A stretch of 64,000 nucleotides of DNA from Planctomycetota bacterium (GTDB lineage: Bacteria > Planctomycetota > UBA8108 > SXIK01), in contig CBDCXR010000004.1 of assembly GCA_965223845.1 (NCBI GenBank), forward strand, positions 4,128,001-4,192,000, read 5' to 3'. The notes beneath the pieces are model-generated. The model was given only the letters and a program-made list of their open reading frames with translations. It had not been told where the DNA came from and ran no database searches. Each line of letters starts with the position of its first letter. Positions within the stretch are counted from its first letter, which is position 1. A program made the translations under genes and the position numbers. Shown here piece by piece: positions 7,655 through 15,639 of the stretch.

Positions 7655-8617
7655 CTATCGCGCCGGCGCCGGGCGAAGCCGGTACTGCGCGAGCGCTTTC
7701 CGCAGCAGCGTCGGATCGGCGGTGCCGTTGAGTGGTCCGTGCGCGCGGACGCAAAGGCCGCCCAGCGTGCAGCCGAGCGATACCGCCTCGGCCGGCCCCA
7801 AGCCCTGGAGTCGACCGGCGAGGTATCCCGCGACAAAGCTGTCGCCCGCGCCCGTCGTGTCGACGGCGTTGACGCGCGGCGCGGGAAGCGACTGTATCCC
7901 GCCCTGCCAGGAGACGAGCGCGCCCTTCTCGCCCTGCTTGACGACGACTTCCTGGACGCCGCGCTCGTGAAAGTAATTGAGCACGGAATCGCGCTCGGCG
8001 CGGCCGCTGATGAGGCACGCCTCGTGCTCGTTCATGAACGCGATCTCGACGAGCTCGAGGAGAGGGCGGTGCTCCTTGACGTGCTGAGCCGTGGCCGCGC
8101 GCCCGTTCCCGGACGCGCAGATGTCGAGTGTCACCTTGCGCTTCGACGTCTTGAGGAGGCGGACGAGCTCAGCCGCCTTGACGGGCCAGATCCCCGTGAG
8201 CCTCTCCGGCGCTGCGAGGTGGAACATCTCGCACGGAATCCGGTGAATATTCGGCGGGAACTGATAGTTGCGGTTCACACCCGGTTGAAAGATGCGGCGC
8301 TCGTTCCCGTCCGCGTCGATCTGGGTGAGCCCGACGGGGGTCGACTCGCCCGCGACGAGCCGGAGTCGCTTCGTGTCGACCTTCTCCGCCTGGAGGGAAC
8401 TCTTGATGTTCTGCCCCATGAAGTCGTCGCCGAGGACACCAACGACGGCCGTCGAAATGCCGAGTCGAGAAGCGACCGTGCTCGTGTGCACGGCCGCACC
8501 GCCCACGACGAGGTGGAAGAGATCTTCGACGACGGAGAGTCCGCCCGCGCCGGACGACTCGTAGTGCGGCACATGCAGCTCGACGCCGGCATTTCCGATC
8601 ACGACCAACTTTGCCAT
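7655..8617 (-). CDS. PfkB-family carbohydrate kinase
   Basis: PfkB signature DTTGAGDSFVAGY, NEHEA, VVVKQGEKGA, GVLGDDFMG. Confidence 0.9.
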   Translation of the reverse strand: MAKLVVIGNAGVELHVPHYESSGAGGLSVVEDLFHLVVGGAAVHTSTVASRLGISTAVVGVLGDDFMGQNIKSSLQAEKVDTKRLRLVAGESTPVGLTQIDADGNERRIFQPGVNRNYQFPPNIHRIPCEMFHLAAPERLTGIWPVKAAELVRLLKTSKRKVTLDICASGNGRAATAQHVKEHRPLLELVEIAFMNEHEACLISGRAERDSVLNYFHERGVQEVVVKQGEKGALVSWQGGIQSLPAPRVNAVDTTGAGDSFVAGYLAGRLQGLGPAEAVSLGCTLGGLCVRAHGPLNGTADPTLLRKALAQYRLRPAPAR

Positions 8618-8900
8618 AGCAATTCGACCCCGTTCGGCTCTCGGACCGCGCGCCGACCGATCGCGGCTCTCTCACCGCCGGCACAGCGCCGCGAATCGAT
8701 CCCGGTCTCGCACCGGAGTTCCCGGCGTCATCCGGCCGTTCGCACGCGAACGAACCGGCTCTCTTAGCGAAGAGTACCATCGGGATCCAATCTCGGCCGG
8801 CGGAGACGTCTTCTTCCGAAAAAAGCGGTGAAACCGCACGTCGACTCGCGCGTCCATCCGTCCGAGAACTCGCTGGTGGCGTCCGCCCCACGCGCGTCGG

Positions 8901-8929
8901 TTGACTCGCGGCCGGCGCTCAACGAGAAT
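8901..8929 (+). promoter_or_regulatory. Candidate sigma70-type promoter for the PspA-like/AAA pair
   Basis: TTGACT-N17-GAGAAT about 70 nt upstream of the GTG at 9002. Confidence 0.4.
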
Positions 8930-9001
8930 CCGCTCTTGGCGTCAAGCATAGGCGCTTGTCGTACTTCCCTCTGACTTCCGCTTCTCTTCGAGGGTCCCGC
9001 C

Positions 9002-9835
9002 GTGTTCGCAGCCATCGGTCGCTACCTCCGCGCCTTCGGGTATCTGATCACTGGACGCATCGACGCCGCGCGCCGCACGCTCGCGCAGAGTCCCCACGTC
9101 ATCCGTGCGACGTACGACCGCGTCATCGAAGAAAAAACGAAACAGATCGGACAGTACAAAGAAGCCGTCGCGGGGATGATCGCTCAACAGGAGAAGAAGA
9201 TCAGTCGCGTGAAGACGCTCACGAGCGAGATCGAGAATCTGAACCAGCTGCGCGAAGGAGCGGCCGCAAAGGCGAAATCCGTCGTCGCCGAGCTCAAGGC
9301 GAAGGGCGTCTCGATGGAGGACATCAAGGCGAACGAGGAGTACATGCGCTGCTTGAGCGCGTTCAATGACTTTTCGCACTCCATCGAGGAAAAGACAGCC
9401 CACGCCTCCGAGTTCGAAGGGGACATCAACGAGCTCGGAGAGAACATCGGCGGGCACAAGGTTCAGCTCCAGCAACTTCTCCGCGACATCGAGAAGCTGA
9501 AGGAAGAGGCTCACCAGACCGTCGCCGACGTCATCACGGCGAAGGAGGAGCAGAAGATCGCCGACATGATTTCGGGGATCAGCGAAGACCGCTACTCGAA
9601 GGAGCTCCAGGAGCTCCGCGAGCTTCGCGACCAGCAGAAGGCGAAGGCCAGAATCTCTCGCGAAATCGCCGGAACGGACACGAAGCAGCAGGAGTCGGAG
9701 TTTCTCGAGTACGCTCGGAAGAGCGCGGCGTCCGACGAGTTCGATCGCCTGATCGGACTCGCCGACGAAGCGGAAAGCGAGACGAGCGAACCGGCCGAAG
9801 AGGCGAAGCGGCAGACACAGCTCCCCGAGGAGTAG
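9002..9835 (+). CDS. PspA/IM30-like coiled-coil protein
   Basis: 277 aa, apparently all helical; amphipathic N-terminus MFAAIGRYLRAFGYLI, Pro (QSP) at the position of PspA EDP, AVAGMIAQQEKK segment, C-terminal SDEFDRL. Confidence 0.6.
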   Translation: MFAAIGRYLRAFGYLITGRIDAARRTLAQSPHVIRATYDRVIEEKTKQIGQYKEAVAGMIAQQEKKISRVKTLTSEIENLNQLREGAAAKAKSVVAELKAKGVSMEDIKANEEYMRCLSAFNDFSHSIEEKTAHASEFEGDINELGENIGGHKVQLQQLLRDIEKLKEEAHQTVADVITAKEEQKIADMISGISEDRYSKELQELRELRDQQKAKARISREIAGTDTKQQESEFLEYARKSAASDEFDRLIGLADEAESETSEPAEEAKRQTQLPEE

Positions 9836-9961
9836 CGAACGTCGGGCGGCGTCGAAGCGAGCACTGGCACGCGGCCGCGCCGCCTGCGCGAGCTAGACGT
9901 CACGACTCGCCGCTTCCCTCACCGAATCGGGTGAGACATCCGGAAGAGGAATCGCACCACC

Positions 9962-11854
9962 GTGTCGGCACCACCGAGCTACGAATTCTTCAAGCAGCTC
10001 GCGCGCATCATCAATTCGGGACAGTCGCGCGGAGTCATCCTCCAGGGCAACGTCCAGGACCTCTATCACATCCCGGATCCCGTCTCCGAGCCGAGCGACG
10101 AGACGCGCGAATCCGAGACGGTTGTCGCCGCCCGCACGGGTGGGCGATACGCGCCTCTCGTCGAGTTTCTCTGCGAGAAGTGCCGCGTCGACGGCATCGT
10201 TCTCCTCGTCTACGAGATCAACGGTCCCGTGCGCGTCGTCAGCGAGAGCGATCGGCGGCAGCTTCGCGACGGTTGGGTCTCGTGGAAGAGTGGGATGGAA
10301 GCCGAGGAGATCGCGTTTCACAGCCTCGGCAGCCAGAAGCTCCGCAACGAACGGAACAGTCTCGAAGAAGAGTTCGATCGGAACTTCCACCGCTCGGTGG
10401 GGAAGCCGACGCTCGCGCTCGAGTTTCTCCGGCAGCTCGCGCTCTGCTCTCGGTCGCGGAGCCCGAAAGGGAAACCTCATATCGACGGGAATCTTCTCGT
10501 CATCATCGAAGCGGCGGATCTCCTCCTTCCCGTCGGAAGCGGCGACATCTCGAGCCTATCGCCGGTCGACCGACAGCGGGTGAGCATCGTCCACGACTGG
10601 TTCTCGGACCCGGGCTTCATGGACGCACACGACACGGTCGTCCTCCTCGCCGAGTCGTCGAGCAGCATCCATCCGCGCGTCGCCCGTCTCCCGCAGGTGC
10701 TCTCCGTCGAGGCGCCCGCGCCGGATCTCGCCTGCCGGCAGCACTACATCGAATGGTTCCTCGAGCGAACCCGCGCGGGGGACGAATCCGCCGCAGCGGA
10801 GCCGAAGCTGTGGGGAACGGTCGCGGATCTAGCCCGCTTCGCAGCCGGTCTCAGCATTCATGCGCTTCGCCAGCTCCTCATCGGCGCGGCTTACGCGGGA
10901 ACGCGACTCGAGCCGAACGATGTGATCGAGAAAGTCGAAGATTTCATCCGCCGGCAGATCGGCGACGACGTCGTCGAGTTCAAGAAACCGGAGCACACGC
11001 TCGACGATGTCGTGGGATTTCGGCGACTGAAGGAGTTCATCTCGGGCGAGCTCTTACCGCGCTTCAAGGCGAGTGACGCGCGCGCGCTCCCCGGCGCGGC
11101 AGTCGCCGGACCGATCGGCGGCGGAAAGACGTTTATCTTCGAGGCCGTCGCCGCGTCGCTCGACCTTCCGGTGCTCGTGCTCAAGAACATTCGCAGTCAG
11201 TGGTTCGGCCAGACGGACGTGATCTTCGAGCGACTCCGGCGCGTGCTCGAGGCACTCGTCAAGGCGGTGATCTTCGTCGACGAAGCGGACACGCAGTTCG
11301 GTGGCATCGGACCGGAGGTCCATGCAACGGAACGCCGACTCACGGCGCGCATTCAACAGATGATGTCCGATCCGACCCTCCGCGGACGGATGATCTGGCT
11401 TCTCATGACCGCGCGGATCCATCTCCTCTCGCCGGACATTCGCCGACCGGGGCGCGTCGGTGACTTGATCATTCCCGTGCTCGATCCGGCCGGCGAGGAT
11501 CGCCGCGACTTTCTGCGCTGGGTGCTCTCGAGCGTCCTCTCCGAAGACGTCACGGACGATGCGATCGACGACCTCGATTCGCTCACCGAAGGATATTCGG
11601 CGGCCGCGTTCGCTTCGCTCCGATCGCAGCTCAAGGCGAAAGCCGCCGAGGGGACGCTCACGTTCGACGACGTCCGCGCCGTCATCGCCGACCACCTCCT
11701 TCCCCCGATCGAGCTCACCCGGCGCTACCAGACTCTCCAAGCGCTCAGCAACTGCACGCGGCGGTCGCTCCTCCCCGACCCCGACATCGATGACGACGCT
11801 CGCTCTGAGTGGGAGCGTGAGCTCCGCGAGCTCGAAGCGCAGGGAATTCGCTGA
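9962..11854 (+). CDS. AAA+ ATPase (degenerate N-terminal plus active C-terminal AAA module, Ycf46-like layout)
   Basis: Walker A GPIGGGKT, pore loop SQWFGQT, Walker B VIFVDEAD, Arg finger IRRPGR. Confidence 0.85.
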   Translation: MSAPPSYEFFKQLARIINSGQSRGVILQGNVQDLYHIPDPVSEPSDETRESETVVAARTGGRYAPLVEFLCEKCRVDGIVLLVYEINGPVRVVSESDRRQLRDGWVSWKSGMEAEEIAFHSLGSQKLRNERNSLEEEFDRNFHRSVGKPTLALEFLRQLALCSRSRSPKGKPHIDGNLLVIIEAADLLLPVGSGDISSLSPVDRQRVSIVHDWFSDPGFMDAHDTVVLLAESSSSIHPRVARLPQVLSVEAPAPDLACRQHYIEWFLERTRAGDESAAAEPKLWGTVADLARFAAGLSIHALRQLLIGAAYAGTRLEPNDVIEKVEDFIRRQIGDDVVEFKKPEHTLDDVVGFRRLKEFISGELLPRFKASDARALPGAAVAGPIGGGKTFIFEAVAASLDLPVLVLKNIRSQWFGQTDVIFERLRRVLEALVKAVIFVDEADTQFGGIGPEVHATERRLTARIQQMMSDPTLRGRMIWLLMTARIHLLSPDIRRPGRVGDLIIPVLDPAGEDRRDFLRWVLSSVLSEDVTDDAIDDLDSLTEGYSAAAFASLRSQLKAKAAEGTLTFDDVRAVIADHLLPPIELTRRYQTLQALSNCTRRSLLPDPDIDDDARSEWERELRELEAQGIR

Positions 11855-11873
11855 CGCTCGCGACGTTGCCGGG

Positions 11874-11902
11874 TTGACTCCCCCCGCGGATCACTCGATC
11901 AT
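11874..11902 (+). promoter_or_regulatory. Candidate sigma70-type promoter upstream of the DUF1501 gene
   Basis: TTGACT-N17-GATCAT, implying a leader of about 190 nt. Confidence 0.35.
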
Positions 11903-12100
11903 CGAAGCTAGGGCGGTCGAGCGCGGTCAGCCCGGAAGTCTCCCCGGATTCGGTGAGCGAAGTGGCGAGACGCCGTACCGGGCCGTCTTCACGAAGGAGC
12001 CCGCTCCGGGCCGTGTTCGCAGCGTTCCGAGGATCGGCGCCGCGACGCATCCGATGCGCAACTCTCGTCTTACGGCGACGTAGTGAGGATGGGGTGAGAA

Positions 12101-13573
12101 ATGCGGGTTAGCGAACACCTACCTTCCCTCGACGGCGAGCACCCCACAGCGCCCTTACTGCGTCCGGCGACTCGGCGCGAGTTCTTCACGCGGTCGGGCG
12201 GCGGCTTCGGTGCCGTCGCTCTCGCGTGGCTCCTCCATGACGACGGCCGAGCCGCTCCGGACGATTCGTCGCCGCTGAGCGGACGAGCGGGCGCCTCACT
12301 CCACCACGCGCCACGGGCGAAGCGTGTGATCCATCTCTTCATGCACGGTGGTCCGAGCCACGTCGATCTCTTCGATCCGAAGCCCGCACTCGAACGGTAC
12401 GCGGGAAAGCCGCTGCCGGAGAGCTTCGGCGAAGTGATGACGCGACGGAAGGTCGCGAGCAATCCGCTTCTTCCCTCCGCTCGACCCTTCCGGCCGCGCG
12501 GCGAGTCAGGCCTAGAGATCAGCGATTTTCTTCCGCACATCGCGTCGTGCGCCGACGAAATCGCCCTTCTCCGCAGCTGTCACGGCGACAGCGTCAACCA
12601 TCCGCAGTCCGTGTACCAGATGAACACGGGAAGCACTCTGATGGGGAAGCCGAGCCTCGGGAGCTGGCTCAGCTACGGGCTGGGTACGGAGAACCGCGAC
12701 ATGCCGGCGTACGTCGTTCTCCCCGATCCGGGCGGTGCACCAAAGGGCGGACCGCCGGCTTGGGGAAGTGGATTCCTTCCGGCCGAACACCAGGGAACGC
12801 TCCTTCGTCCCGGTCCCGAGCCGCTCGCGCATCTCCGCCCGCCGCCGGCGCTCTCGCGCGTGGAGCAGCGCGCCGCGCTCGATCTCGCCCGCCGTCTCAA
12901 CAAGCGCCACCTCGCCGAGCGCGAGTTCGACCGCGATCTCGTCGCTCGCATCGAGGCGTACGAGCTCGCCTATCGAATGCAGAGCGCCGCGCCCGAGCTC
13001 GTCGCGATCGATCGCGAGAGCGCCGCGACGAAGCGGCTCTACGGGATCGACGAAAAGGAAACGCACGAATTCGGAGTGCGCTGTCTCCTCGCGCGAAGGC
13101 TCGTCGAACGCGGCGTTCGCTTCGTCCAGGTGTACTCCGGCGACACCGGCGGCTGGGACGCACACAAGAGCATCGAGAAGAACCACTCGCTCTACTGTCG
13201 CCGCACGGACCGGCCCGTCGCGGGACTCCTCCGCGACCTCGCCTCGCGCGGTCTTCTCGCCGACACGCTCGTGATATGGGGAGGTGAGTTCGGCCGCATG
13301 CCGATGAGCGAACAAGGAACGGGGCGCGACCACAATCCGTGGGGATACACGATTTGGATGGCGGGCGGCGGTGTGAGCGGAGGAATCGCCTACGGTGAGA
13401 CGGATGCCGTCGGTCTCCGCGCGACGGAGAATCCCGTCCACGTTCACGATCTCCACGCGACGGTCCTCCATCTCCTCGGGATCGACCACGAGCGCCTCAC
13501 CTTCCCGCACGCGGGTCGGGAGCAGCGCCTCACCGATGTCGCCGGGCGAGTCGTCCGCGAAATCCTCGCGTGA
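12101..13573 (+). CDS. DUF1501 domain protein (Tat-exported, planctomycete-type)
   Basis: TRREFF Tat motif, AKRVIHLFMHGGPSHVDLFDPKP, LLARRLVERGVRFVQ, WGGEFGRMP, GRDHNP. Confidence 0.92.
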   Translation: MRVSEHLPSLDGEHPTAPLLRPATRREFFTRSGGGFGAVALAWLLHDDGRAAPDDSSPLSGRAGASLHHAPRAKRVIHLFMHGGPSHVDLFDPKPALERYAGKPLPESFGEVMTRRKVASNPLLPSARPFRPRGESGLEISDFLPHIASCADEIALLRSCHGDSVNHPQSVYQMNTGSTLMGKPSLGSWLSYGLGTENRDMPAYVVLPDPGGAPKGGPPAWGSGFLPAEHQGTLLRPGPEPLAHLRPPPALSRVEQRAALDLARRLNKRHLAEREFDRDLVARIEAYELAYRMQSAAPELVAIDRESAATKRLYGIDEKETHEFGVRCLLARRLVERGVRFVQVYSGDTGGWDAHKSIEKNHSLYCRRTDRPVAGLLRDLASRGLLADTLVIWGGEFGRMPMSEQGTGRDHNPWGYTIWMAGGGVSGGIAYGETDAVGLRATENPVHVHDLHATVLHLLGIDHERLTFPHAGREQRLTDVAGRVVREILA

Positions 13574-15639
13574 GGGGAAGGAAGGACGCCACGATGAATC
13601 ACCGGCGAAGCCGCTCCCGGCCTCCTTCCCGGTTCCCGGACTACCTGCTGTCGACAGTCACGGTCGCGATGTGGATCGCGATCTTGGCGACCTCTCCGCT
13701 CCGAGCGGACGACGCAGCGGCGGCATTCGTCGAACGCCCACTCAAGAAACGAGATCTCGAGCACTGGGCATTTCGTCCGCTCGGTGACGGGTCACCGCCC
13801 GCGCGCGAAGATGTCGAGGGCGATGCGAACCCGATCGACCGGTTCATTCTCGCTGAGCTCCGTGCGCGCGTGCTCGAACCTCTTCCCTCGGCCGACCGGC
13901 GAACGCTGATTCGTCGCGTCAGCTACGACCTGGTCGGACTTCCACCGACTCCGCTCGAGGTGGAGGCGTTCCTTGAGGACGATCACCCGGAGGCGTACCG
14001 GCGACTCGTCGACCGCCTGCTCGCCTCGCCGCGCTACGGCGAACGCTGGGGACAACACTGGCTCGATCTCGCGCGCTTCGCGGAATCCGACGGCTACGAG
14101 CACGACAAACTCCGGCCGAACGCCTGGCGCTATCGCGACTGGGTGATCGGCGCGCTCGCGAGCGACCTTCCGTACCGGGAGTTCGTCGCCCTCCAGCTCG
14201 CCGGCGACCAGTTGCGACCGAACGACCCCGCGGCCGCGATCGCAACCGGATTCACGCTCGCCGGACCCGACATGCCGGACATCAATCTGCAGGCCGAGCG
14301 GCGCCACATGGTGCTCAACGATATCACGGCGACGGTCGGCGAGGTCTTCCTCGGCCTCAACATCGGGTGCGCGCAGTGTCACGATCACAAATCCGATCCG
14401 ATCAACCAGGCGGACTTCTACCGTCTCCGCGCGTACTTCGATGGCGTCGACATCTTTCGCGATCACCCGCTCGAACTCGCGCCCGAAGGGGCGAAGCCCG
14501 TCCACGGACGCGTCCTCCGCGAGAAAACGAAAATCGCGCCTAGCCGACTGATGATCCGCGGCGACTTTCGGCGGCCGGGCCCCGAGCTCGAGCCGGCGGT
14601 TCCTCGCGTTCTCGCCTCCAGCCTTCCCCAAGCTGCGAGTCCGTCGCACCCGGGCGATGTCTCGGCCTCTCTGCCTCGTCGCCTTGCGCTCGCGCGCTGG
14701 ATCACGCGATCGACGAACGCGCTCTCCTACCGCGTGATCGTGAATCGCGTTTGGCTCCATCACTTCGGGGAAGGCCTCGTCCGCACTCCGAGCCTCTTCG
14801 GGCGGGACGGCACGCCGCCCACGCATCGAGACCTTCTCGATTGGCTCGCGCGCGAGTTCGTTCACCAGGGCGGCAGCCTGAAGGAACTCCATCGCTTGAT
14901 CGTGACCTCCAACGCGTACCGCCGAGCGAGTCGCCCAGCGACGATCGAAGATCGCGCGCGCTATCGTCGTTCGCTCGACGTGGACCCCGAGAATCGGCTT
15001 CTCGCGCGTCAGAACCGCCGGCGACTGAGCGGCGAAGCCCTCCGCGATGCACTCCTCCAGATCGCCGGGAGACTGAGCGAGAAGCGGGAGGGCCCCGGCG
15101 TGATGCCGCCGCTTCCGCCCGAGGTCCGCCGGAGCATCCGGAAGGATCACTGGAAAGTGACCCCGGACGAGAACGAGCACCGCCGGCGCAGCATCTACCT
15201 CTTCGTGCGGCGCAATCTTCGTTACCCGTTCTTCGAGGTCTTCGATGCCCCCGATCGCCTCGTCAGCTGTGCTCGACGCGAGCGAACGACGATCGCGCCG
15301 CAGTCGCTCGCCCTGCTCAACTCGGAGCTGAGTCTCGAAGCGGCTCAGTTCACCGCGGGACGGGTGCTCGCGCGCGCCGGAAGCGATCGAAGCGCACAGA
15401 TCGACGCCGCATTCGAGCTCGTTCTCGGCCGACCGCCGCGGGAATCCGAGCGTGCGGACTGCCGGGAGAGCCTCGCCCAGATCGCAGCGCATCTGCGGGA
15501 ACGCATCGACGCGGCTGAAACCATCGCCGAGCCACTGCCCGCCGGGACGCGCGACGGAATCGCGCGCGCGGACGCCGCGGCGCTGACGTCGATCTGCCTC
15601 ACGCTTCTCAACACGAACGAGTTCGCGTACGTGGATTGA
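13570..15639 (+). CDS. DUF1549/DUF1553 (PSD1) domain protein with CxxCH
   Basis: HWAFRP, NPIDRFI, YGERWGQHWLDLARFAES, CAQCHDHK, NRVWLHHFGEG, RRSIY, ends NEFAYVD. Confidence 0.92.
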   Translation: MRGRKDATMNHRRSRSRPPSRFPDYLLSTVTVAMWIAILATSPLRADDAAAAFVERPLKKRDLEHWAFRPLGDGSPPAREDVEGDANPIDRFILAELRARVLEPLPSADRRTLIRRVSYDLVGLPPTPLEVEAFLEDDHPEAYRRLVDRLLASPRYGERWGQHWLDLARFAESDGYEHDKLRPNAWRYRDWVIGALASDLPYREFVALQLAGDQLRPNDPAAAIATGFTLAGPDMPDINLQAERRHMVLNDITATVGEVFLGLNIGCAQCHDHKSDPINQADFYRLRAYFDGVDIFRDHPLELAPEGAKPVHGRVLREKTKIAPSRLMIRGDFRRPGPELEPAVPRVLASSLPQAASPSHPGDVSASLPRRLALARWITRSTNALSYRVIVNRVWLHHFGEGLVRTPSLFGRDGTPPTHRDLLDWLAREFVHQGGSLKELHRLIVTSNAYRRASRPATIEDRARYRRSLDVDPENRLLARQNRRRLSGEALRDALLQIAGRLSEKREGPGVMPPLPPEVRRSIRKDHWKVTPDENEHRRRSIYLFVRRNLRYPFFEVFDAPDRLVSCARRERTTIAPQSLALLNSELSLEAAQFTAGRVLARAGSDRSAQIDAAFELVLGRPPRESERADCRESLAQIAAHLRERIDAAETIAEPLPAGTRDGIARADAAALTSICLTLLNTNEFAYVD

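Follow-up and report, generated by a model that had tools for sequence, protein, structure and literature searches.

A divergent PspA-like protein and a tandem AAA+ ATPase are encoded as a conserved gene pair in a planctomycete genome

A stretch of 64,000 nucleotides from a Planctomycetota bacterium (GCA_965223845.1, contig CBDCXR010000004.1, positions 4,128,001 to 4,192,000; referred to as the window) contains two neighbouring genes for proteins of 277 and 630 amino acids (aa). On sequence grounds, the 277-aa protein is a divergent member of the PspA/IM30 proteins within the ESCRT-III superfamily. It was placed there because its family profile matches that of PspA and because Vipp1 structures are the top fold matches of its model. 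The 630-aa protein is, judged from its sequence and predicted model, a type-II classical AAA+ ATPase of Cdc48/VAT-like character, whose D1 domain is degenerate and whose D2 domain looks active. The two genes are a conserved unit, and a pairing of this kind was predicted by comparative genomics in 2024 (Ravi et al., PMC11237479). Taking all lines of evidence together, the analysis leans slightly towards reading the two genes as a minimal bacterial module in which an ESCRT-III-like polymer is served by a dedicated AAA+ remodeller. If this is true, some bacteria may have an ATP-driven membrane-remodelling cycle of the ESCRT-III type.

Conservation of the gene pair

An earlier note on this DNA, made from the letters alone, had described a two-gene unit at this locus. 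Both open reading frames were confirmed on the same strand, 126 bp apart:

9002..9835, + strand: PspA-like gene, 277 aa, GTG start (open reading frame list)
9836..9961, + strand: intergenic spacer of 126 bp, no + strand terminator-like site (site scan)
9962..11854, + strand: tandem-AAA ATPase gene, 630 aa, GTG start (open reading frame list)

The only terminator-like site found at the spacer by the site scan is on the - strand (9971-9954), and co-transcription of the two genes is plausible from the sequence. A sample of 201 planctomycete genomes was used to follow both proteins through the phylum. The PspA-like gene was detected in nine of these genomes, with eight strong matches (E<=2e-99) and one distant match. 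The genomes with a strong ATPase orthologue (E<=6.5e-226) are exactly the same eight that have the strong PspA-like match, and in all of them the two genes are found on one contig and one strand, less than 6 kb apart. The genome with the distant PspA-like match (G049) encodes a distant ATPase on a different contig.

A locus scan with one genome per species yielded 185 relatives among the pattern matches. The best 80 loci from named genomes were classified by the position of the ATPase gene:

33/80 loci: adjacent PspA-like/ATPase pair
23/80 loci: same-strand ATPase 2.9-6 kb further downstream, separated by genes for a solute-binding protein, a permease and an ABC (ATP-binding cassette) ATPase
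13/80 loci: no ATPase within at least 8 kb downstream
11/80 loci: locus too short to tell

The ATPase gene thus follows downstream on the same strand at 56 of the 69 informative loci, and the synteny check that had been proposed for the pair comes out in its favour with these counts and the eight-of-eight co-occurrence in the planctomycete sample. The best 80 loci come from Planctomycetota, Verrucomicrobiota, Hydrogenedentota, Desulfobacterota/Thermodesulfobacteriota, Acidobacteriota and one metagenome-assembled genome labelled 'Proteobacteria'. The module is patchily distributed across phyla, and horizontal transfer is possible. The earlier note had also tied the pair to the membrane invaginations of planctomycetes; this link is unsupported, because the PspA-like gene occurs in only 9 of the 201 genomes of the phylum and the family is present in other phyla. 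Six further planctomycete genomes encode, within 6 kb of a canonical PF04012 PspA and on its strand, a more distant ATPase paralog that matches the family profile at E 1e-40 to 1e-62 (G144:C184, G191:C18, G081:C11, G116:C57, G187:C23 and G123:C4). The association between PspA and AAA+ proteins therefore reaches beyond the subfamily found in the window.

One ATPase orthologue (L012, G005:C57:10237-12048) contains a single in-frame TAG; a sequencing error, read-through or decay to a pseudogene could each account for it. Second, more distant ATPase paralogs are present elsewhere in two pair-bearing genomes (G115:C15:29484-30782 and G100:C174:1585-2898), the former with 34% identity and covering residues ~160-628.

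Features of the two proteins

The 277-aa protein belongs to a large and tightly conserved family. In a word-indexed database, 841 proteins matched it at E<=0.001, and the best 120 of these share 57 to 71% identity with the query; an exhaustive search yielded 582 family representatives at 50% identity. Of the best 120 homologs, PF04012 was precomputed for three, and one source calls eight 'phage shock protein A'; 'Zn-ribbon protein' and 'chromosome segregation ATPase' are found among the other names.

Family membership was examined with two alignments, one of 30 close homologs and a diverse one of 54 sequences. Comparison of the diverse alignment by hhalign with 12 canonical, PF04012-positive PspA proteins from other planctomycete genomes gave a match of 97.3% (E 1.7e-11) over 213 collinear columns, extending from alpha0 to the C-terminal helices. 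The controls with reversed template or reversed query reached 1.3% and 1.5%. A profile search of the PDB with the same alignment retrieved Vipp1 (6zvr_B, E 1.7e-8) in the register seen in the hhalign comparison, together with a dozen further Vipp1/PspA chains, and 8 of the 54 members match PF04012 at E<=0.01 (best 7e-6). At the profile level, homology to genuine PspA spans the full length, and the evidence for membership strengthens as the alignment diversifies. The AlphaFold2 model of the protein, with a predicted local distance difference test (pLDDT) value of 77 overall and of ~90 or more across residues 31-170, consists of helices 2-16, 19-28, 31-100 and 112-241. This predicted arrangement has the N-terminal helix, the long alpha1/alpha2-3 hairpin and the further helices of the ESCRT-III fold. 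In a Foldseek search of the PDB, ranks 1-3 are occupied by Vipp1 with ~250 aligned columns (E 1.4e-3 to 2.8e-3). The PspA-like features pointed out in the earlier note, which had proposed such comparisons with PspA and Vipp1, are therefore upheld by profile and fold methods, while direct family searches fail.

Several of these searches weigh against the PspA assignment and against the module reading that includes it. The 277-aa protein matches no Pfam family at E<=0.01, and PspA is not among the 13 families at E<=10. The protein consequently does not reach the gathering score of PF04012, and the genome-wide search with this model misses the locus. With the 30 close homologs alone, hhalign reached only 77.7% and the PDB profile search retrieved Vipp1 at only E 1.6. 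No Foldseek match of the model reaches E<=0.001. In the PDB search with the diverse alignment, the two best matches are coiled-coil coronavirus spike constructs (7e-9 and 1.4e-8), and a coiled-coil or compositional bias therefore exists there. Matches to NCBIfam ASRP (0.0017), PADLOC JetC (0.0029) and a PHROGs SbcC-like family (0.0015) were rejected as weak coiled-coil noise.

Three specific features mark this PspA/IM30 subfamily:

9290..9364, + strand: family-specific insertion of ~25 residues (~97-121) at the tip of the alpha1/alpha2 hairpin, unaligned to canonical PspA in hhalign
9737..9763, + strand: conserved EFDxLIGLA motif near the C-terminus (residues 246-254), with an acidic tail of low model confidence behind it (30-sequence alignment)
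9821..9829, + strand: near-terminal L-P-E, residues 274-276, with L274, P275 and E276 invariant in 30 sequences

The stretch that includes the insertion is invariant in the 30 sequences at G102, I108, Y114, C117, A120, N122, D123 and F124, and in the model the two long helices are separated by a short one (105-109). The stretch has an invariant Cys and an AFNDF motif, and the insertion within it has no counterpart in canonical PspA. The insertion could be a contact site for a partner or for lipids. Within the C-terminal motif, E246, F247, L250, I251, G252 and A254 are invariant across the 30 sequences. The region downstream is acidic (9 D/E versus 2 K/R in residues 251-277) and is modelled with pLDDT <50 at residues 252-275. 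As a hypothesis only, EFDxLIGLA and the acidic tail might form the docking site for the ATPase; a complex prediction with the full ATPase and residues 200-277 of the PspA-like protein, run without controls, scored 0.25, below the mark of 0.32, which counts neither for nor against such a contact.

The following elements were assigned to the ATPase:

9962..10981, + strand: D1, a degenerate AAA-like domain, presumably nucleotide-free, residues 1-340 (fold alignments to D1-D2 ATPases)
10982..11641, + strand: D2, an active-looking classical AAA domain, residues ~341-560 (PF00004, VAT/p97 profile matches, Walker A in 30/30)
11108..11131, + strand: Walker A GPIGGGKT, residues 383-390, with G383, I385, G386, G388, K389 and T390 invariant
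11192..11218, + strand: pore loop 1 RSQWFGQTD, residues 411-419, with R411, S412, W414, G416, Q417, T418 and D419 invariant
11270..11290, + strand: Walker B IFVDEAD, residues 437-443, with I437, D440, E441, A442 and D443 invariant
11405..11455, + strand: sensor-1 region MTAR (482-485) plus the arginines R494, R495 and R498 of the second region of homology (30-sequence alignment)
11642..11854, + strand: C-terminal helical extension, residues ~561-630, with invariant RxYQxLQA..NCTR..LLP (alignment and model)

Sequence matches of this protein are confined to D2. Residues 381-500 match PF00004 (E 1.1e-12), and the family profile finds VAT (5vc7, 6.3e-25) and p97 D1 (~1e-22) in the PDB with profile positions 350-555 only. 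Vps4 is absent among the 60 PDB matches listed. The NCBIfam models CDC48, CdvC and PAN match far below their cut-offs, as exemplified by CdvC (3.2e-10, 39 bits versus a cut-off of 650). The domain preceding D2 was recognised from the AlphaFold2 model (pLDDT 86.8, predicted template modelling score 0.78), which Foldseek aligns over 500-690 columns to tandem D1-D2 AAA proteins at E ~1e-15. The matches include Rix7 (7swl_D, 1.1e-15), MSMEG_0858 (5e7p, 1.5e-15), p97, NVL and Drg1. The D1 region has no sequence match in PDB or Pfam, and its conserved stretches in the 30-sequence alignment are SGQSRS...GN.HDL and LLIxIEAAD. A GxxxxGK[ST] P-loop is found in the D2 part of 30 of 30 homologs and in the D1 part of none. 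The degenerate nature of these 340 N-terminal residues had been overlooked in the earlier note.

The catalytic residues of a classical AAA domain (K389/T390, D440/E441, W414 and R495/R498) are invariant in 30 of 30 homologs. Together with the PF00004 match, this bears out the placement in the classic clade that had been proposed, and all motifs named in support of it (GPIGGGKT, SQWFGQT, MTA and RRPGR) are present and invariant. Pore loop 1 resembles the SKW.GES of Vps4/Cdc48-type proteins. Downstream of it, M482, T483, A484, R485, R494, R495, P496, G497 and R498 are invariant (RRPGR being 494-498). In the HMMER alignment to VAT, 'mtarihllspdirrPGr' stands opposite 'ATNRIDAIDPALRRPGR', with 'tar' against 'TNR'. 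We take Ala484 to occupy the usual position of the sensor-1 Asn, following a by-eye alignment to the ATNRPD...RPGR consensus. In the C-terminal extension, the invariant columns span R587-P605 and the model predicts helices 568-577, 584-596 and 611-626. Two AAA-fold domains were found in place of the MIT domain plus single AAA domain of Vps4/CdvC, and the ATPase is not a Vps4 orthologue because the MIT domain is absent. A role in defence was rejected as unsupported, as PADLOC gives only generic AAA matches to IetA (6e-6).

Long and reduced forms of the locus

Many relatives of the pair are part of a larger gene cluster, which had also escaped the earlier note: an ABC importer is encoded between the two genes, and OmpA-domain and transmembrane (TM) coiled-coil genes precede them. 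The complete version is a seven-gene operon that encodes, in order, an OmpA-domain protein, a coiled-coil protein with two TM segments, the PspA-like protein, a lipoprotein solute-binding protein, an ABC permease, an ABC ATPase and the AAA+ protein. An OmpA-domain gene and a gene for a protein with a pair of hydrophobic segments and a long helical stretch after them usually lie ahead of the long form. In most long operons this second gene directly precedes the PspA-like gene; one example encodes a 281-aa protein (L021:9150-9995, - strand) whose hydrophobic segments lie at residues ~45-90. This protein probably corresponds to 'TM+Snf7' of Ravi et al. The Phycisphaeraceae chromosome OY763327.1 carries two PspA-like copies (L107 and L038), one in a full seven-gene operon and the second without an ATPase within 9 kb.

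A tree built from 81 PspA-like proteins shows at least nine switches between the pair and the long architecture, through which the PspA-like and ATPase genes stay together. On it, the window protein clusters weakly with a relative that has the long operon (82 in the Shimodaira-Hasegawa-like approximate likelihood ratio test, SH-aLRT). Homologs of the OmpA-domain, TM coiled-coil, solute-binding and permease genes were found neither in the window nor in its genome (tblastn, E<=1e-5). PspC (PF04024), Snf7 (PF03357) and canonical PspA (PF04012) gave no match in this genome, which is 91.7% complete. Given these absences, the module in the window looks like a minimal, reduced version of the seven-gene operon.

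The immediate surroundings are unrelated to the pair. Upstream, on the opposite strand, genes for a PfkB kinase and an FG-GAP/ASPIC protein were identified by Pfam searches of the window proteins. Downstream, at 12101-15639, a DUF1501 gene is followed by a PSCyt2/PSD1 (DUF1549/DUF1553) gene, which is a common planctomycete pair. The absence of pspBC and pspF from the vicinity, as claimed earlier, agrees with these neighbours. With regard to partners in the Psp regulon (pspF-pspABC), PspC is absent from the genome and from the neighbours, and PspB and PspF were not searched. The candidate promoter proposed for the pair was recovered as a consensus match only:

8901..8929, + strand: sigma-70-like candidate promoter TTGACT-17-GAGAAT, 9/12 consensus positions, upstream of the PspA-like gene

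Two sigma-70-like sites occur in the 3.9-kb region 8400-12300, versus 0.3 expected from shuffles. The second (TTGACT-17-GATCAT, 11874-11902) is located just past the ATPase stop codon and ahead of the DUF1501 gene.

Proposed mechanism, alternatives and known systems

The analysis establishes to which family each protein belongs, how the ATPase is built from its domains, and that the genes are conserved as neighbours and co-occur; on this basis the following cycle can be envisaged. The PspA-like protein would polymerise on or under the cytoplasmic membrane. The ATPase would act as a hexamer, in which the D1 ring, having lost nucleotide binding, probably serves as a scaffold or substrate-docking ring and the D2 ring retains Walker A and B, the aromatic pore loop and the arginine fingers. 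The hexamer would engage the conserved, disordered acidic C-terminal tail of a PspA-like subunit and thread or pull subunits from the polymer through the D2 pore. Extracted subunits would then be recycled, resulting in turnover or remodelling of the polymer. Such an action would be analogous to that of Vps4, not orthologous. We infer polymerisation, membrane binding, the contact of both proteins and the direction of action, and it is the gene context and the analogy with ESCRT-III/Vps4 that suggest binding and disassembly of the polymer by the ATPase. A more specific version is advanced tentatively, at somewhat less than even confidence: a Cdc48-like tandem AAA+ protein would be the functional bacterial counterpart of Vps4, with D1 docking the EFDxLIGLA...LPE tail and D2 threading it, and would have arisen independently of the archaeal Vps4 line.

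A number of observations tell against this cycle. The sensor-1 Asn is replaced by Ala484 in all 30 homologs, and replacement of this Asn weakens hydrolysis in other AAA proteins. Neither an MIT domain in the ATPase nor a demonstrated MIT-interacting motif (MIM) in the tail of the PspA-like protein is present. The N-terminal helix of the latter has a hydrophobic moment of 0.35, compared with 0.28 +/- 0.13 for shuffled sequences, 28% of which reach 0.35; an amphipathic alpha0 membrane anchor is unsupported, as this moment is not above that of the shuffles. At 13 of the 69 informative loci, the PspA-like gene is found without a nearby ATPase. Finally, the relation between PspA and an AAA+ protein in Escherichia coli runs the opposite way, with PspA inhibiting PspF (PMC7619361).

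The last point leads to an alternative that we regard as unlikely but worth serious attention, namely that the PspA-like protein is a regulator or adaptor, which holds the ATPase inactive or recruits it to stressed membrane, and that the clients of the ATPase are found elsewhere, for example among damaged membrane proteins. Binding and inhibition of PspF by E. coli PspA is an established precedent (PMC7619361). However, PspF is an AAA+ protein of the bacterial enhancer-binding protein type that is fused to a DNA-binding domain and belongs to a different clade, whereas the window ATPase of 630 aa is without a helix-turn-helix and has the pore loop of a threading enzyme. The conserved linkage fits a regulator as well as a substrate, the atypical sensor-1 Ala484 could mean that the ATPase needs activation, and the ATPase resembles the general unfoldases Cdc48/VAT, not Vps4. 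On the other hand, the disordered, acidic tail of the PspA-like protein with its invariant tip looks like an engagement tag, and no conserved third-party client candidate is encoded in the two-gene form (33 bare pairs).

Considerably less probable is the idea that the ancestral task was the assembly or maintenance of a trans-envelope solute-uptake complex, consisting of the OmpA-domain protein, the lipoprotein solute-binding protein and the ABC importer, of which the window pair would be a remnant with reduced or changed function. This idea draws on the 23 of 80 loci with transporter genes between the pair, mostly preceded by the OmpA-domain and two-TM coiled-coil genes, on the grouping of the window protein with a long-operon relative (SH-aLRT 82) and on the lack of OmpA, TM coiled-coil, solute-binding and permease homologs in the source genome (E<=1e-5). 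Ravi et al. (PMC11237479) also tie the system to solute transport. Yet bare pairs make up 33 of the 80 loci, at least nine changes of architecture have left the pair in place, and both window genes are intact with all invariant residues kept, which together argue that the pair works without the transporter. The view that the 277-aa protein is a generic coiled-coil protein outside PspA with meaningless adjacency to the ATPase, which could appeal to the lack of a Pfam match, the weak matches to SMC/JetC/SbcC-type coiled-coil models and homolog names such as 'chromosome segregation ATPase' or 'Zn-ribbon protein', is highly improbable and already disfavoured by the full-length collinear PspA profile match with reversed controls at 1.3-1.5%, by Vipp1 as the best fold match, and by linkage at 56 of 69 informative loci with eight-of-eight co-occurrence.

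The remodelling module favoured here can be compared with several known systems. It shares with ESCRT-III/Vps4 (CdvB/CdvC) that an ESCRT-III-superfamily protein is encoded with a classical AAA+ ATPase bearing an aromatic pore loop and the arginines of the second region of homology. It differs in that the window ATPase has two AAA domains, no MIT domain and its best matches in Cdc48/VAT/p97, and no MIM is demonstrated; moreover, PspA and Snf7 form separate branches, and no Snf7 match was obtained in the window genome. Canonical PspA/Vipp1 (IM30, PF04012) has the same helical layout and collinear profile homology, but the window protein is distinguished by its ~25-residue hairpin-tip insertion, its own C-terminus (EFDxLIGLA ... 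LPE) and the lack of a PF04012 match. Canonical PspA coexists with the window subfamily in some genomes (G023 and G115). Like Cdc48/VAT/p97, Rix7, NVL, Drg1 and MSMEG_0858, the ATPase has the tandem D1-D2 fold over its whole length, and its D2 sequence is closest to the D1 of VAT/p97. Unlike these proteins, it has no N-terminal substrate-recognition domain before D1, its D1 is without a P-loop (30 of 30 homologs), its sensor-1 residue is Ala and it carries a family-specific C-terminal helical extension.

The closest precedent is the dyad described by Ravi et al. (mSystems 2024, PMC11237479), who report, in silico only, a PspA gene together with one for an 'inactive-Classical-AAA+Classical-AAA' protein and propose that the two remodel membranes in an ATP-dependent way, as Snf7/VPS4 do. 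The implied novelty of the pair in the earlier note does not hold, as both the PspA/AAA+ dyad and the Snf7/VPS4 analogy are contained in this paper; what stands of its interpretation is the identity of the proteins and their linkage. As in that description, the PspA-family gene of the window adjoins a gene for a two-AAA protein with an inactive N-terminal domain, and the operon of the relatives adds the ABC ATPase, permease, solute-binding protein, OmpA domain and membrane-anchored coiled-coil protein ('TM+Snf7'). The examples given there are Clostridium and Handelsmanbacteria genomes, and the extended operon is described as optional. 'Planctomycet' does not appear in the main text of the paper and occurs once in its supplement, in another context. 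Further differences were noted at the level of the published description: the extended operon is lacking in the window and its genome and is found in relatives (23 of 80 loci); the AAA gene precedes PspA in the Clostridium example; the solute-binding protein and OmpA domain are encoded by separate genes in the relatives analysed here; and the PspA-like protein of the window falls in a subfamily that is Pfam-negative and has an insertion at the hairpin tip.

The disassembly of bacterial polymers of the ESCRT-III type (PspA, Vipp1) is an open question, for which the dyad of a PspA-family protein and an AAA+ ATPase is an obvious candidate answer. According to a 2025 review, an ATPase like Vps4 'appears absent in bacteria' (PMC7619361). 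Experiments on the dyad, or on any bacterial AAA+ protein directed at PspA, did not turn up in literature searches, which ran mainly on listings and abstracts and did not cover subscription-only papers. The two-gene form in the window is the simplest version to reconstitute, and its value is that of an experimental entry point, not of a discovery. Beyond the dyad already in print, the window reveals that the ATPase can be paired with a PspA subfamily that Pfam does not recognise and that has a hairpin-tip insertion and an invariant tail of its own, that both proteins co-occur exactly in a phylum-wide sample and that the pair outlasts the repeated loss or gain of transporter genes. The pair is a clean system for testing whether an ATP-driven cycle of the ESCRT-III type operates in bacteria.

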